This document shows positions 36,702-50,231 of a stretch of DNA of 50,231 bases, piece by piece. The translations under genes and the position numbers were made by a program. This DNA is from a virus (Duplodnaviria > Caudoviricetes), in the IMG/VR virus record IMGVR_UViG_3300030376_004672, positions 1 through 50,231 of that record; one strand, written 5' to 3'. Below the pieces are notes generated by a model that made no database searches, was not told where the DNA came from, and saw only the letters and a list, made by a program, of their open reading frames with translations. The stretch's first letter is position 1. Each line of letters begins with the position of its first letter.

Positions 36702-37238
36702 TTAATCGTATACTCCATTAAAAATTGTATTTAATTTTTTTTCAATAACCCCCTCAGTTTCCGGCTTTGTTCGGCTTCTTATTAAATCAAAGAGTTTTTT
36801 AAATCTCTTATCTCTGAGTTGATTAGTGTGGATTGTCTCTTTGAGACTTTGTACTTCCAAAGATAACATTTTATTTCTATCTTCCAAAATTAAAATATGT
36901 CCTTTCAGCTCGTGAGGTTGCAACTCATCTATTCTTGGGTCTGCTATTTTGTAATATCTGACGCAGGTTTGATACTGAGAGTGGAGTTCTTTGTCGTAAT
37001 CTAAAATAAAATTTATGTTTTTTAAATAATGAAGCACAGACGCATGGCTTTCTAGATTAAGATGAGATGCAATAGCGTTTACAGTAGAACCTTCGTCTCG
37101 CATGAGCTTTGCAAAAATCATTCTTCCATTTACAAAGTTTCTTTTACGAGTTTTACTTGTCAGTTTTATGTTGAAAACTTGGTTAATAATTTTTTTAAAT
37201 AAATTGGCTCGTGTAGACTCTCTGTAATATGGCTTCAT
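36702..37238 (-). CDS. DnaA C-terminal-like HTH protein with coiled coil
   Basis: KTRKRNFVNGRMIF...IA..LN..SHASVLHY. ATG 37238 is preferred over 37268. Confidence 0.65.
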   Translation of the reverse strand: MKPYYRESTRANLFKKIINQVFNIKLTSKTRKRNFVNGRMIFAKLMRDEGSTVNAIASHLNLESHASVLHYLKNINFILDYDKELHSQYQTCVRYYKIADPRIDELQPHELKGHILILEDRNKMLSLEVQSLKETIHTNQLRDKRFKKLFDLIRSRTKPETEGVIEKKLNTIFNGVYD

Positions 37239-37557
37239 TTGATTTAAGTGTTTGATTTTTGGAAACATAGTCTAAATATGTATCGCAATCAATTTTATTT
37301 ACATTAATAAATATAGGAAAATCTTTTGGTTCATGGATATATTCTACCTCAAAAAAATAAGGGGTGCTATATTTCAACACTCCTCCTATCTTTTGGGTGT
37401 ATCCTTCTACCATTGGCAACATATAAGCATTGCATTCTATAAGAACCGCAATAGGAATGGACAGGTAGTCTGCCATATCTTGCATGTCTTGCATCAGACT
37501 ATCATCAAACTCATAATAGGTATCAATCCCCTCTATATATTTCTGTGATGCATCCAT
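37195..37557 (-). CDS. Hypothetical acidic protein
   Basis: 120-aa ORF overlapping both neighbours. Confidence 0.55.
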   Translation of the reverse strand: MDASQKYIEGIDTYYEFDDSLMQDMQDMADYLSIPIAVLIECNAYMLPMVEGYTQKIGGVLKYSTPYFFEVEYIHEPKDFPIFINVNKIDCDTYLDYVSKNQTLKSNEAILQRVYTSQFI

Positions 37558-44136: not shown

Positions 44137-44541
44137 TTATTTAATTTGATTTAATTTTTGTGAAACTTTGGCAAACCTCTGCATTATTCGTTCTCGATTT
44201 GCTTTGAGACTTTGAATATGCTTTGCGTTTTTACGGGAGTTCACTTCATCCCTTATTTTACTTTCAATTATATCTAGCTTTGACCTATAATTAGATAATG
44301 CTAGATTAAATACACCATACCTCCAACCTCCATCGAAAAAAAATTCTAAATCTTTTTCCGGTACAAGAGAATAAAAGTCTCCACCTTTCGTGGTGTTGTG
44401 TATATTTATTTCTCCGGTGTGAGTAATTTTTTCAATACGGATTCCATACAATATATTAGCTTCCATACCATCACCATTTAAAGATGCTGTGTAGCTATCT
44501 TCTTGTGCTTGTTTAAGTATGTCTGTTAGATTGTAACGCAT
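44137..44541 (-). CDS. Hypothetical protein (start uncertain)
   Basis: 134 aa with C-terminal coiled coil. Confidence 0.6.
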   Translation of the reverse strand: MRYNLTDILKQAQEDSYTASLNGDGMEANILYGIRIEKITHTGEINIHNTTKGGDFYSLVPEKDLEFFFDGGWRYGVFNLALSNYRSKLDIIESKIRDEVNSRKNAKHIQSLKANRERIMQRFAKVSQKLNQIK

Positions 44542-44834
44542 TCATCTATACTTTTACAAACAGCTATAAAATCTTTATCTCTTACCTTATCATCCTCTAC
44601 TGCATTAATCCCATGAATAATGGATGAATGTCCAATATGGTATCCACTCTCTTTCATAAATTGCTCGATATAAGTTAACTTCATAGGTCTTTTTATACAC
44701 AAAAAATATAACATATGCCTAGCATCAACTACGGCTCTAGTTTTATCTTTTGAAAATAATTTATCTGTTGTAATATTGTGAACTTCTGCTACCTTTTGAG
44801 CATACTTATTGAATATTTCTTTTTTATAATTCAT
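44526..44834 (-). CDS. DnaA C-terminal-like HTH protein
   Basis: LFSK.K.R.VVDARHML.FL...HSSIIHG. Confidence 0.7.
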   Translation of the reverse strand: MNYKKEIFNKYAQKVAEVHNITTDKLFSKDKTRAVVDARHMLYFLCIKRPMKLTYIEQFMKESGYHIGHSSIIHGINAVEDDKVRDKDFIAVCKSIDECVTI

Positions 44835-47355: not shown

Positions 47356-47609
47356 AATTTTCTTGATTTTAGTTTATAATTATCTTCAGCTACGTCTTTA
47401 AGAACTCCCCATATATGTTCTATTGTACAGGGATGTTCCATTACCTCAACAAGTAACTCCATAGCTGTATCTGAATCCGTATCATACAATTCTTGTACGT
47501 CAAATACATTCCATAAGTTAGCTGTTTGGTAGCCGTTTCTTTCAAGGATTACTTTAGCATCGTGTATCCTCTCGTAGCTAGATTCATACTTTTTAAAAGT
47601 GTGTTCCAT
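47352..47609 (-). CDS. Hypothetical protein
   Basis: 85 aa, AAACT-ATG start. Confidence 0.65.
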   Translation of the reverse strand: MEHTFKKYESSYERIHDAKVILERNGYQTANLWNVFDVQELYDTDSDTAMELLVEVMEHPCTIEHIWGVLKDVAEDNYKLKSRKL

Positions 47610-47619
47610 AGTTTTTGAT

Positions 47620-48171
47620 TTAGTTATTAATTACTCTTACTCTTTTCGCATTCCCCTCGCCTTGTTCAATAGAAAAGATATCGCCATATACTTCTAACGT
47701 CTTATCCAAGACATCAAAAGCTCGATATACTTTTATTATTGTCGACTTCTCTTCAATCCATTCTTTTTCTTCACCATTACGCACCCTAATCGTTTGGAGG
47801 TGTGCAGTTATGACTCCGGCATCTTCAACATCCTCACCACTAAATCTTATCTTACCTTTAAGATAAATTCCTTTAGGTTGGAGAAAGTCAGAGACTATAA
47901 ACTTAAGCCAATTAACATATTGATAAAACTTTTGACCTCCGTTCCAAGCTAAACAATGAATGTCGGTTATGCCGTGTTCAACATCGTCAATGATTTCCCA
48001 TTTATTATATATTGATGGAGCTTTCTCTAGACCTCCTCGATAGTCGCCGGAGTATTCACCTGTGGTGTCGTGCCTGTCGTTTAGCCAAACTTGATTATAC
48101 TCATCAAGTTCGTCTTGTGTTAACCTTCTTGATAATGCCATCAGTCCGGTAAAATTGGTTGTGTAACCCAT
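47620..48171 (-). CDS. Hypothetical phage protein (MGY.T.F.G type)
   Basis: 183 aa; WNGG.KFY.YV.WL..I...L...G..L.G.I...GED..D.G pattern. Confidence 0.7.
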   Translation of the reverse strand: MGYTTNFTGLMALSRRLTQDELDEYNQVWLNDRHDTTGEYSGDYRGGLEKAPSIYNKWEIIDDVEHGITDIHCLAWNGGQKFYQYVNWLKFIVSDFLQPKGIYLKGKIRFSGEDVEDAGVITAHLQTIRVRNGEEKEWIEEKSTIIKVYRAFDVLDKTLEVYGDIFSIEQGEGNAKRVRVINN

Positions 48172-48232
48172 AATGTTTAATATTTAATTACAATTTAATT
48201 TAGTGAACACTTTGAAATCTTGTTCAGGATTT

Positions 48233-48354
48233 TAGAACGCAGACGAGGAATCGAACCTCTATATTAATAACCTAACGTCTTGTGTCAAATGGATAAGGGA
48301 GTTATGAGTCTCCTTATCTAAAACCACTTCCGAGCACCATGCTATCATCTGCGT
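48233..48354 (-). ncRNA. tRNA-like RNA A (non-canonical, ~120 nt)
   Basis: 7-bp acceptor ACGCAGA/TCTGCGT, T-arm GAGG-TTCGATT-CCTC, U8, D-like GG, central stem with CTCATAA in the loop, ends T-CTA. Confidence 0.65.
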
Positions 48355-48374
48355 TGCCACTTACAATTACGTTG

Positions 48375-48406
48375 CAATAATACGAATTAATAAATTAATA
48401 AACAAA
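48375..48406 (-). promoter_or_regulatory. Early promoter
   Basis: TTTG-N20-TATTATTG (one mismatch to TAnnTTTG). Confidence 0.7.
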
Positions 48407-48424
48407 TTTTAGACGAACTTTTTT

Positions 48425-49138
48425 TTATTGCTCCGGTTTATAATCCGGATTTGGAGCGTTGTCAGTCGTCAAAACTTGTAGCATAATGGCATCCACAAAT
48501 TGCTGTAAGATGTGTCCATACTTCTCATCAAAGCTATGGTCTTCTCTCCAATTATTTAGCCACCTTTTAAATTCTCGTAGCATAATTGTATTGGTCATAA
48601 ATCTATCCATCCAATTAAGCATATCTTGATAGTAACGAGTTACTATATACTCCTCGTGAATGGTGCAGTTGCCACCACAATAGGAGCAGTCTTCAGCTAT
48701 CTCCTCCATCTCGCCATCGTCATCTTCCTCTTCGTAATACTCCCAACCACTACCACCACACTCACAACAATCCTGAAATACTTCCTCGATGACATTGCAA
48801 TTGCCATTATTATAATAGTCGTAGTAGAATCTACTAGCAATACGAATCAGCTCTCCATTAATGGTTTCAGCTTCAGCAGATTGTGGTACTAGTTTTTTAT
48901 AAAGCTCATCATACTCTTTTTGATAAGCACCCTCATTGTTCCAATAGGTTTTTCCTAAAGGTGTTGATTTGCCGTGATGTTCAGCTGTCTTTTCCATCCA
49001 TTTGCACCAATCGGCTAAAGTTTGTCGAGCATCAATTTTGCTCATACCGAATCTTTTGATTAGGTAGGGTGTCGCACCGAACATATTCGTCTCGCCGGAC
49101 ATCTGCAATTCGCAGAGATAATTAAAATGTGTGTTCAT
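48425..49138 (-). CDS. Multi-domain early protein with DnaJ-like Zn finger and acidic loop
   Basis: SGETNMFGA N-domain; LVPQS..AET..GELIR...R.YYD.YNNG domain; CECGGSG...CSYCGG. Confidence 0.75.
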   Translation of the reverse strand: MNTHFNYLCELQMSGETNMFGATPYLIKRFGMSKIDARQTLADWCKWMEKTAEHHGKSTPLGKTYWNNEGAYQKEYDELYKKLVPQSAEAETINGELIRIASRFYYDYYNNGNCNVIEEVFQDCCECGGSGWEYYEEEDDDGEMEEIAEDCSYCGGNCTIHEEYIVTRYYQDMLNWMDRFMTNTIMLREFKRWLNNWREDHSFDEKYGHILQQFVDAIMLQVLTTDNAPNPDYKPEQ

Positions 49139-49163
49139 AATGTTTACATTTTTATTTAATAAA

Positions 49164-49214
49164 TCCGTTTCATCCTTTCGGAATCATCAGGTGTGATACA
49201 CATCACACTACGGA
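49164..49214 (-). ncRNA. Type III hammerhead ribozyme
   Basis: Minus strand TCCGTA|GTGTGAT-GTGT-ATCACAC-CTGATGA-TTCC-GAAA-GGAT-GAAAC-GGA. Complete CUGAUGA/GAAA core, stems I-III, GUA cleavage triplet (cut between 49209 and 49208). Confidence 0.9.
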
Positions 49215-49234
49215 GGGAATGAACCCCCCTTGTA

Positions 49235-49483
49235 TTAACTCACTCTCTCATATTCGTCTAGCCAATCATTAATGTCGTCTTCGTCTAACCAATAGTTAGT
49301 AAATTCGTTACCTTCTAAAATCAATTCTTTGGCTATGTCCATCATCCCATATTTATCATAGAATAATTCTGAATCAGGGTCTTCAATTTCTGTCTGACCT
49401 ATTTCGTGTAGCCACCCTACTTCGTAACCATCATTGGTTGGTAGGTAGTCAAACACATAGTGTTTTAGTTTTTTATTTGCCAT
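49235..49483 (-). CDS. Hypothetical highly acidic early protein
   Basis: 82 aa, ATAACT-ATG start, D/E-rich. Confidence 0.7.
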   Translation of the reverse strand: MANKKLKHYVFDYLPTNDGYEVGWLHEIGQTEIEDPDSELFYDKYGMMDIAKELILEGNEFTNYWLDEDDINDWLDEYERVS

Positions 49484-49500
49484 AGTTATATATATTTAAA

Positions 49501-49767
49501 TTATTTAACAAAACTCTTTTTCTCCCAAACAAATGAACTGCTCCACTCGTCTTCATCTTCTTGCTTTATCTCTTCAATCTCTTGCTCAATAAATGATTCA
49601 ATCCTATTGAATAGTTCAAGCGTTTGCTCTTCGTTGAGTAGCTCATTATGTTTTATATAGTTAGCTAACCTGTCGTAGTAGCTAAGCTCTTCACCTTCAG
49701 AGTTCCCCAAAAAATTGAAGGGGAAATCTCTGTAAGTGGTGTCGTTTATCCATCCTTTTCCTTTCAT
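49501..49767 (-). CDS. Hypothetical acidic early protein
   Basis: 88 aa, E-rich. Confidence 0.7.
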   Translation of the reverse strand: MKGKGWINDTTYRDFPFNFLGNSEGEELSYYDRLANYIKHNELLNEEQTLELFNRIESFIEQEIEEIKQEDEDEWSSSFVWEKKSFVK

Positions 49768-49776
49768 AGATATATA

Positions 49777-49908
49777 TTAAAATTGAATTGTTGAACCTCC
49801 TGTTGCAATAATGTGAATCACTACTGCTGACCAAGAGACAAGAACAAAGGTTAATACTGCGAATGTTATTACATTCTCTACTGAAATTGATTTGATTTTA
49901 TTTATCAT
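49777..49908 (-). CDS. 43-aa membrane microprotein MINKIKSISVENVITFAVLTFVLVSWSAVVIHIIATGGSTIQF (not in ORF track)
   Basis: ATAACT-ATG start, one hydrophobic helix; first ORF after the rightmost promoter. Confidence 0.65.
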   Translation of the reverse strand: MINKIKSISVENVITFAVLTFVLVSWSAVVIHIIATGGSTIQF

Positions 49909-49928
49909 AGTTATTAGTGGTTTAAAAT

Positions 49929-50017
49929 TAGTAACTAGAAGAGGAATCGAACCTCTTTACTCGTCAGTAGTTATTGGGATAATCAGCTTACGCCTTCTCC
50001 AATATCCAAACCTAGTT
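49929..50017 (-). ncRNA. tRNA-like RNA B (non-canonical, ~86 nt)
   Basis: Acceptor AACTAGG/TCTAGTT, perfect T-arm AGAGG-TTCGATT-CCTCT, stemless D-like TTTGGA, central stem TATTGG/CCAATA, variable hairpin TACT-GACG-AGTA, ends A-CTA. Confidence 0.7.
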
Positions 50018-50084
50018 AACATCTGTTGAAACCTTTTGTATTCGTGAATCCTATTCAACCTTGTTTCGTGTTCCAAAGATTCGA

Positions 50085-50116
50085 CAATAATACGACAAGA
50101 TTTCGACATATACAAG
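50085..50116 (-). promoter_or_regulatory. Early promoter
   Basis: CTTG-N20-TATTATTG; shares TCGTATTATTG with the 48375 promoter. Confidence 0.65.
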
Positions 50117-50231
50117 TTTTTCAGCACTTTTTTTTCGCCAACAGGTTAAACTTTTTTCGTCTCCCCTGTTGAGTTTTGTGTGGTTAAAATCTCATATAGT
50201 GTAATTAAATCTATCGAGTAGCTATCCTTAT

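Follow-up and report, generated by a model that had tools for sequence, protein, structure and literature searches.

Among the small RNAs described so far, those that most closely resemble the element reported here are mascRNA and menRNA, which are about 58 nt long and form a shrunken cloverleaf with a 2–3-bp D stem, a short hairpin equivalent to the anticodon arm and an intact T arm; mascRNA is cut by RNase P and RNase Z, is CCA-tailed but not aminoacylated, and binds proteins (PMC10424219; PMC9976931; 10.64898/2026.01.19.700226). The t-elements of plant mitochondria are described as non-canonical cloverleaves with the T-arm motif GGTTCRANYCC, whose termini coincide with those of mRNAs processed by RNase P or RNase Z (Forner et al., 2007; PMC1920247). 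Mycobacteriophage DS6A encodes a TLD-only tmRNA, which is an anticodon-less tRNA mimic (Hudson et al., 2014; PMC4131195), and the YrlA Y RNAs, which also occur in phages, carry a tRNA-mimic domain with D, T and acceptor-like stems, the acceptor-like stem-loop separating the T arm from the D arm, with a Ro60 gene adjacent (Chen et al., 2014; PMC4201824). The RNAs RNAC and RNAD of phage T4 are small RNAs of unknown role from the phage tRNA region (PMC3014915), and 10,006 candidate viral RNAs have been reported from IMG/VR (Fremin et al., 2023; PMC10690425).

In the present work, we have analysed a stretch of viral DNA (Caudoviricetes; positions 1 to 50,231 of the IMG/VR record IMGVR_UViG_3300030376_004672), the whole of which, 50,231 nucleotides, is referred to as the window. 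It carries a tRNA-like RNA, termed B (Table 1), which folds as a compact, shrunken cloverleaf without an anticodon. Judged by sequence comparison, B is a genuine member of a phage RNA family that is apparently undescribed, and it represents a new form of tRNA mimicry. Like mascRNA, its insert-less relatives are 55–59 nt long, and two short members (L414 and L362) have the same four-way layout in their minimum free energy (MFE) folds; unlike mascRNA, which is the product of a eukaryotic lncRNA, B has a phage context, a 6-bp acceptor, a fixed GACG loop and a long exchangeable insert in its D loop, and we read the resemblance as convergence. With the t-elements B shares the T-arm motif, carried by a non-canonical cloverleaf that adjoins a message, whereas it differs from them in forming a multi-genome family with sequence-level constraint and modular inserts, which is clustered with RNA genes, is tied to no single message and is known from sequence alone. 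B resembles mascRNA or a t-element in shape and probably in processing, and it is a member of neither group. It is of similar size to the DS6A TLD-only tmRNA and is likewise phage-encoded and anticodon-less, but it has no G3.U70, possesses a D stem and gives no match to RF00023. Unlike YrlA, B keeps the arm order of tRNA, and a TROVE (Ro60) gene was found in none of 22 genomes in a search whose controls were positive, which rules out B as a Y RNA. To T4 RNAC and RNAD it can be likened by description alone, as small RNAs of a phage tRNA region. A literature search covering titles, the openings of abstracts and few subscription papers found no description of the family, and the B motifs matched nothing in four of the supplement files of PMC10690425; the family may already be present, unnamed, among the models of that study.

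The genes of the window for terminase, portal, virion and tail proteins are on the plus strand, while the replication genes and small early-type genes are on the minus strand. The completeness of the contig is rated at 83%, and no integrase is present among the 41 ORFs scanned. Because the nearest terminases of cultured phages (31–45% identity among the matches listed) come from phages of Flavobacterium, Maribacter, Cellulophaga and Tenacibaculum, the host would be a member of the Bacteroidota, likely a flavobacterium. The contig ends 214 nt from B, which is encoded on the minus strand; a promoter-like motif is situated 67 nt above it, and an ORF of 43 aa that matches neither a PHROG nor a Pfam family starts 20 nt below it. 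The preliminary description had placed it between the rightmost promoter and the first ORF; the ORF is where it was said to be, whereas the promoter amounts to a motif, compared here with the Bacteroidota −33/−7 promoter consensus, and a sigma-70 scan of the window listed no minus-strand site upstream of B. A similar motif precedes a further tRNA-like RNA, element A, at 48375–48406. Three TGTCG repeats with 11-nt spacing (50075–50105, minus strand) overlap the promoter-like motif of B. Two minus-strand ORFs of the window (44526–44834 and 36702–37268) are similar to the C-terminal helix-turn-helix of DnaA (PF08299; one above the cut-off). A type III hammerhead-like element with intact core letters (49162–49216, minus strand; 28.7 bits against a gathering score of 48.5, E 0.004) lies 0.7 kb further down the strand of B; a 47-nt match to PaP3-like Pseudomonas phages corresponds to this element, and hammerhead cores are also found in the related loci L003, L004, L006, L007 and L017.

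Table 1. Positions of element B, its parts and neighbouring features in the window.
Feature	Position	Strand	Remarks
Whole tRNA-like RNA B	49929..50017	(-)	89 nt including the ACTA end
Acceptor stem, 5' strand, 6 nt	50012..50017	(-)	Predicted RNase P site at 5' edge; pairs kept, double changes
D-like stem, 5' strand GTT	50009..50011	(-)	Directly after the acceptor
GG of D-like loop	50006..50007	(-)	Putative G18-G19 equivalents; predicted contact with T loop
Insert ("cargo") helix in D loop	49973..50003	(-)	Constrained fold
D-like stem, 3' strand AAC	49970..49972	(-)	Covariation; unpaired in the unconstrained fold of the window copy
4-bp hairpin with GACG loop, in anticodon-arm position	49958..49969	(-)	Kept in the family
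T arm, 5–6-bp stem and TTCGATT loop (49945–49951)	49939..49957	(-)	Fold and covariation
Acceptor 3' strand, discriminator A (49932), CTA replacing CCA	49929..49938	(-)	
Promoter-like motif TTGT-N19-TATTATTG	50085..50115	(-)	Resembles the Bacteroidota −33/−7 consensus; motif only
First ORF downstream of B	49777..49908	(-)	43 aa, hydrophobic; start 20 nt past the element
Element A	48233–48354	(-)	122-nt tRNA-like RNA with its own promoter-like motif

The letters that had been singled out earlier (viz. the acceptor strands, TTTGGA, the GGC-GTAA-GCT arm, the TACT-GACG-AGTA hairpin, the T arm and the ACTA end) are all present on the minus strand of B, and several of the structures built from them are revised by the fold common to the family, which consists of a 6-bp acceptor, a 3-bp D-like stem following without a linker, a loop with GG and an exchangeable insert, a GACG hairpin, a T arm and an A-C(U/A)A end. 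Both strands of the supposed 7-bp acceptor exist, but a seventh pair is no feature of the family (it is paired in 11 of 52 rows). The D loop, which had been called stemless, has a 3-bp stem supported by covariation; the GGC-GTAA-GCT letters form no separate central arm but part of the insert inside the D loop, after the GG; and the hairpin regarded as variable is actually the conserved part, in the position of the anticodon arm. The T arm is there with its perfect 5 bp, and in the window copy an extra U can lengthen the stem to 6 bp, as the MFE fold has it. Under the constrained fold the insert helix of the window copy comprises an outer stem, a conserved internal loop, an inner GGC/GCT stem and a variable cap. 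The D stem of this copy competes with one extra insert pair (−18.0 kcal/mol with the D stem versus −20.5 kcal/mol unconstrained); of the short members, L414 and L362 have the D stem in their MFE folds, L382 and L360 do not, and L321 and L406 fold differently.

The fold energy of B alone is unremarkable (z −0.8 to −1.1), and the evidence for the element is therefore comparative. A strict acceptor and T-arm descriptor matches the window once and 200 simulated sequences not at all, and with the family model R1, of which B is one of the training rows, B scores 76.1 bits. Neither ARAGORN nor Rfam at gathering level calls anything in the window, Rfam at E values up to 10 yields no mascRNA or menRNA match for B, and neither in the window nor in the 32 loci scanned is B covered by any Rfam family. 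As a canonical tRNA (RF00005) B has been rejected: it has the TTCRANY T-arm loop and the D-loop GG, but its acceptor is of 6 bp without a linker rather than of 7 bp with U8-N9, and a 4-bp stem with a GACG tetraloop replaces the 5-bp anticodon stem with a 7-nt loop. Nor is it a hammerhead, since CTGACGA resembles the hammerhead core but no GAAA follows a stem II; a core regex, which is insensitive and also misses the hammerhead-like element of the window, gave no match in 118 B-clade loci. A tRNA-Tyr origin of the GACG hairpin was likewise set aside, the resemblance in letters to tRNA-Tyr variable arms in two of five genome matches being treated as coincidence.

Homologues of B were found by several routes. 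The first, at locus L032, was fetched via its exonuclease without any RNA pattern, and it has the same ends as B with a middle 26 nt longer. A scan with the hairpin and T arm identified 36 viral loci, all alike in layout on inspection, with one cut by a contig end; a scan with the T arm and the acceptor 3' strand, which makes no use of the hairpin, gave 100 viral loci; and the hairpin and T-arm scan of metagenomes gave 119 loci out of an estimated 810. From the 100 viral and 119 metagenome loci 184 distinct elements were parsed, of which 11 were dropped as truncated or acceptor-less; 173 were kept and 162 of these contain the GACG hairpin. Because the members share ancestry and were retrieved with motif patterns, such counts do not represent independent events. 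A relative of the window's terminase is carried by 47 of 49 source records, a set that included four looser look-alikes, and in 40 of them it is found at E = 0 with 64–74% identity. The family occurs mostly within one clade of phages of about 50–70 kb, usually with one copy per genome, and its distribution is patchy (14 of the 15 other related phage contigs gave no match; one weak match of 44 nt). It is missing from the uncultured record MW202828.1 and from the cultured phages elemoA, Panino, phi13:2, phi38:1 and Gundel (best 25.4 bits), and blastn of B against annotated phages returned pieces of 20–32 nt only. Among 185,579 cellular genomes the pattern matched four genome-bin contigs, all with a B-type context on inspection, and when 151 genomes sampled from a single order were searched with the model (30 candidates scored per genome), one contained B, on a contig whose ORFs are small and phage-like. 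Looser look-alikes scoring 15–29 bits (L063, L067, L081, L114, L163 and L239) were left out of the family. A B-like element of 45.4 bits with a different acceptor and a GACA loop lies directly upstream of an apparent primase gene at L011:6109–6189 and L012:6760–6840; these elements may be distant members or a branch of the family.

Each helix was tested in a set of members whose search pattern had left that helix free. The six acceptor pairs are each kept in 90–91 of 91 rows with double changes included, viz. A-U to G-C at pair 2 in 26 rows, C-G to A-U at pair 3 in 12 and U-A to C-G at pair 4 in 8. Of the 82 members found without using the hairpin, 71 have GACG, with a closing pair that is U-A in 34, C-G in 34 and U-G in 3; in the remaining 11 the GACG hairpin is absent or different, one of them keeping the stem with another loop. 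The D-like stem, which joins the three bases after the acceptor to the three before the hairpin, is formed at its three positions in 159, 158 and 123 of 162 rows; its 20 distinct strand combinations are paired in 51 of 60 cells compared with 38.7 ± 2.4 when shuffled, although the shuffles ignore the relatedness of the homologues and the values are no probabilities. In an alignment of the window with 51 members, chosen by eye for variety from the 85 that are no longer than 92 nt, G7 is paired in all 52 rows with the C that immediately precedes the GACG hairpin, and five of these rows are double changes; 97.9% of the cells in this alignment pair, against 20–53% in slid controls. The claim of the preliminary description that B is a tRNA-like RNA without an anticodon loop, selected on structure, is strongly supported by these 52 homologues, in which 14 of 17 pairs show double-sided changes: homologues with compensatory pairing were sought and found, and all four helices covary.

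Other features are kept in the family at the level of letters or lengths. GG occurs at offset 4 or 5 past the acceptor in 156 of 162 rows. The acceptor and T stems stack to 11 bp (6+5) in 114 of 162 members, and of the 48 with an extra base, 31 can lengthen the T stem and 26 can pair it with base 7. In the 91 rows the 3' end has A73 in 88 and C74 in all, and an encoded CCA in none; C3-G70 is found in 76, U4-A69 in 83 and A5-U68 in 91, while G3.U70 is found in 0.

The D-loop insert is freely exchanged between members of the family. The D domain ranges from 10 to 118 nt, the minimal members lacking an insert altogether, and insert types recur as modules: one was counted 10 times in B, 4 times in tmRNA-type scaffolds and 12 times in free positions, another 48 times in B and 9 times in free positions, and two further modules are common to tmRNA-type scaffolds and free positions. 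The window's own module is found in seven B contexts and nowhere else, and two outer pairs are double-changed in six relatives of B that carry it; a pattern made from the window insert gave 70 viral matches, three of them copies of B. Compared with shuffles, the inserts fold modestly better (median z −1.08; 36 of 110 below −1.5 and 12 above 0). A host origin was not indicated for one insert motif, which had 21 matches in genome contigs against a rough chance estimate of about 50, with no fold in the five inspected, and antisense matches between the insert and the window reach at most 11 nt, in a test from which self-matches were incompletely excluded.

Across the clade B is found in the company of other tRNA-like RNAs. 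Of 115 loci, 37 have a second T loop on the same strand no more than 300 nt beyond B, against 0 of 136 in the opposite-strand control; 23 of the 115 have a tmRNA-type scaffold after B, separated from it by 1–2 nt in six cases, and in L140 B is directly succeeded by tRNA-Gln. The commonest true tRNA near B is tRNA-Met (17 of 23 ARAGORN calls), and the clade tRNA-Met genes listed all end in N-CTA, like B (14 of 14). Two further classes of RNA near B are not called by the tRNA mode of ARAGORN, viz. RNAs of the tmRNA-TLD type and minis of 43–60 nt. Those of the first class are 72–134 nt long and have G3.U70, no message and a variable middle with modules common to B (e.g., L119:3129–3209, L129:2903–2985, L131:3590–3665 and L322:404–525); the RF00023 cut-off is passed in 4 of 31 genomes, with matches of 80–82 nt. 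The minis consist of an acceptor and a T arm with a short GG linker (L124:243–285, L130:5146–5188, L131:5491–5534, L136:1012–1054 and L144:3684–3728), and they are good candidates for pure cutting signals. Paired minimal tRNA-like elements of acceptor, short GG linker and T arm, uncalled by ARAGORN or Rfam, are also found in another phage group, at L039:2487–2550 and 1170–1235 and in similar prophage-type loci. Two other unannotated tRNA-like RNAs were noticed, one of 117 nt with a GGGGGAG acceptor (L057:2470–2586) and one carrying G3.U70 (L114:1319–1400).

The genes next to B are less uniform. The next ORFs (n = 99) fall into 27 clusters, the commonest of which lies 7–440 nt from B; the median gap is 141.5 nt to the upstream and 98.5 nt to the downstream ORF, and in 44 of 94 loci a start codon is found no more than 60 nt from B. 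Structured upstream segments abut its 5' end in many loci. Several short motifs recur in these regions: a second GACGAG-containing motif about 115 nt upstream of B, frequently located at the stop codon that ends the preceding ORF (35 contexts; e.g., L119, L129 and L032); a GAATTGCTA-type motif just above the acceptor in 23 contexts; and AATAC(G/A)A-N7-9-GATAATAT, found before early ORFs 154 times in the direction of B and never against it, which is likely a phage promoter or operator on the strength of its position and direction. The window holds partial copies only of the last motif, at 48379 and 50089 on the plus strand, i.e., opposite to B.

Element A had been linked to B through a shared stretch of 16 nt. 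The match is exact (48245–48260 and 49941–49956; two matches against 0.25 expected), but it is weak evidence for kinship, as 11 of the 16 letters belong to the ordinary T-arm motif of tRNAs. With the B family model element A scores 22.7 bits, which is in the range of ordinary tRNAs, versus 76.1 for B. Its CTCATAA (CAU-type) loop is borne by a long stem, and its D arm resembles that of the clade's tRNA-Met, an intact copy of which lies 1.15 kb below B in L032. From these features element A is likely a separate, remodelled CAU tRNA-Met.

Enzymes of tRNA processing read the acceptor/T stack, the GG together with the T loop, and N73-C74. Processing of B by such enzymes is favoured because it conserves an 11–12-bp acceptor/T stack, the GG and T loop, and N73-C74, and because its 3' end takes the N-CTA form of the true tRNA-Met genes of the clade. 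We tentatively propose that B is a stand-alone small RNA which passes through the tRNA maturation path of the host (RNase P, a 3' nuclease, CCA addition) and which displays protein-binding modules in trans, a reading that is plausible while falling somewhat short of probable. RNase P of the host would cut B from the early transcript at the 5' edge of the acceptor, the 3' nuclease would cut after A73, and CCA would then be added; the matured RNA would take no part in decoding and would act in trans as a stable scaffold. More tentatively than the processing, the fixed GACG loop and the exchangeable insert may be offered to protein partners, which could be targets of host takeover or counter-defence. 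The fold, the family, the free exchange of inserts and the clustering with tRNA-like genes are shown by the comparisons above, and from them we infer that B is transcribed, processed, stable and bound by proteins. Three runs aligned to 47500–50231 left B uncovered, which counts neither for nor against its expression. A trans-acting RNA is favoured because B sits like a gene in a tRNA operon, as shown by the frequency of a following T loop; because the next ORF varies, so that B is tied to no single message; and because the constraint exceeds pairing, GACG staying the same while its stem covaries and A5-U68 being invariant. The modular nature of the inserts and the usual single copy per genome count for a scaffold. 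Against it count the stack of only 11 bp in 114 of 162 members, the existence of insert-less members, which makes the insert dispensable, the frequent position of B within 60 nt of a start codon, as expected of a cutting signal, and the modest folding of the inserts, with that of the window never found in another scaffold.

The same observations bear on other explanations. It is possible, if rather unlikely, that B is a cis cutting signal like the plant mitochondrial t-elements or tRNA punctuation, where cuts by RNase P and RNase Z would define where the next message starts and where an upstream structured RNA stops, the excised piece being a by-product. The closeness of B to the next ORF in the window and in nearly half of the loci compared, the structured segments abutting its 5' end and the precedent in Forner et al. 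(2007; PMC1920247) all agree with this, and the hammerhead-like element downstream on the same strand suggests a segmented early transcript. However, a cutting signal needs no invariant GACG loop, sequence-fixed acceptor or large exchangeable insert, the next gene and the distance to it vary, and the simpler minis of the same phages suit the role better. Cutting and display in trans are mutually compatible, by analogy with mascRNA, which is both. Less probable again is a decoy imitating the top half of a tRNA, with an incidental insert, which would soak up a tRNA-targeting defence or a host tRNA-handling enzyme, e.g., a synthetase or a CCA-end enzyme. The proximity of tRNA-Met and the insert-less members agree with such a role, and A73, C3-G70, U4-A69 and A5-U68 match the bacterial Met acceptor identity set in Table 1 of Giege and Eriani (PMC9976931); the same review names the CAU anticodon, which B lacks, as dominant for Met identity and lists A1-U72, which the acceptor of B also carries, as a MetRS antideterminant. 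Further, the CAU tRNAs inspected in the clade and in Bacteroidota genome bins do not have the acceptor sequence of B, and a 6-bp acceptor would be off-geometry for synthetases. The Met identity letters are hence a lead only.

A TLD-only tmRNA titrating SmpB or alanyl-tRNA synthetase would account for the short D region with GG, the lack of an anticodon and the real TLD-only RNAs that adjoin B in the clade, and phage DS6A offers a precedent (PMC4131195); the explanation is nevertheless very improbable, as G3.U70 is missing from every row, a D stem is present, RF00023 yields no candidate in the window, and B and TLD-type RNAs co-occur as separate genes. Hardly more weight can be given to a decayed tRNA gene, an att remnant or a chance resemblance. 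The ordinary fold energy and the lack of matches in nearly all of the other related contigs speak for it, but it is largely refuted by compensatory covariation in all four helices, and the 3' half of B matches only the four genome-bin contigs mentioned above, none of them at a host tRNA. A phage attP was rejected for the same lack of identity with a host tRNA 3' end and for the absence of an integrase among the ORFs scanned in the incomplete contig.

An excised, non-decoding RNA scaffold is thus the reading we prefer for B. A further suggestion, which we regard as doubtful, is that two host-matured chassis, the B cloverleaf and the tmRNA-derived RNAs, share a recombining library of hairpin modules that would serve as decoys or ligands for host proteins, i.e., a natural "tRNA-scaffold display". 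If true, this display would be the RNA counterpart of a variable island of early anti-defence genes. The family is abundant, with about 810 metagenome stretches estimated, and is missed by ARAGORN and Rfam; its members indicate that a mascRNA-like fold has been reached independently in bacterial viruses. If B acts as a scaffold, phages would be using the tRNA maturation of their hosts to make stable RNAs with swappable parts, a strategy that, to our knowledge, is otherwise found only in laboratory tRNA-scaffold expression.
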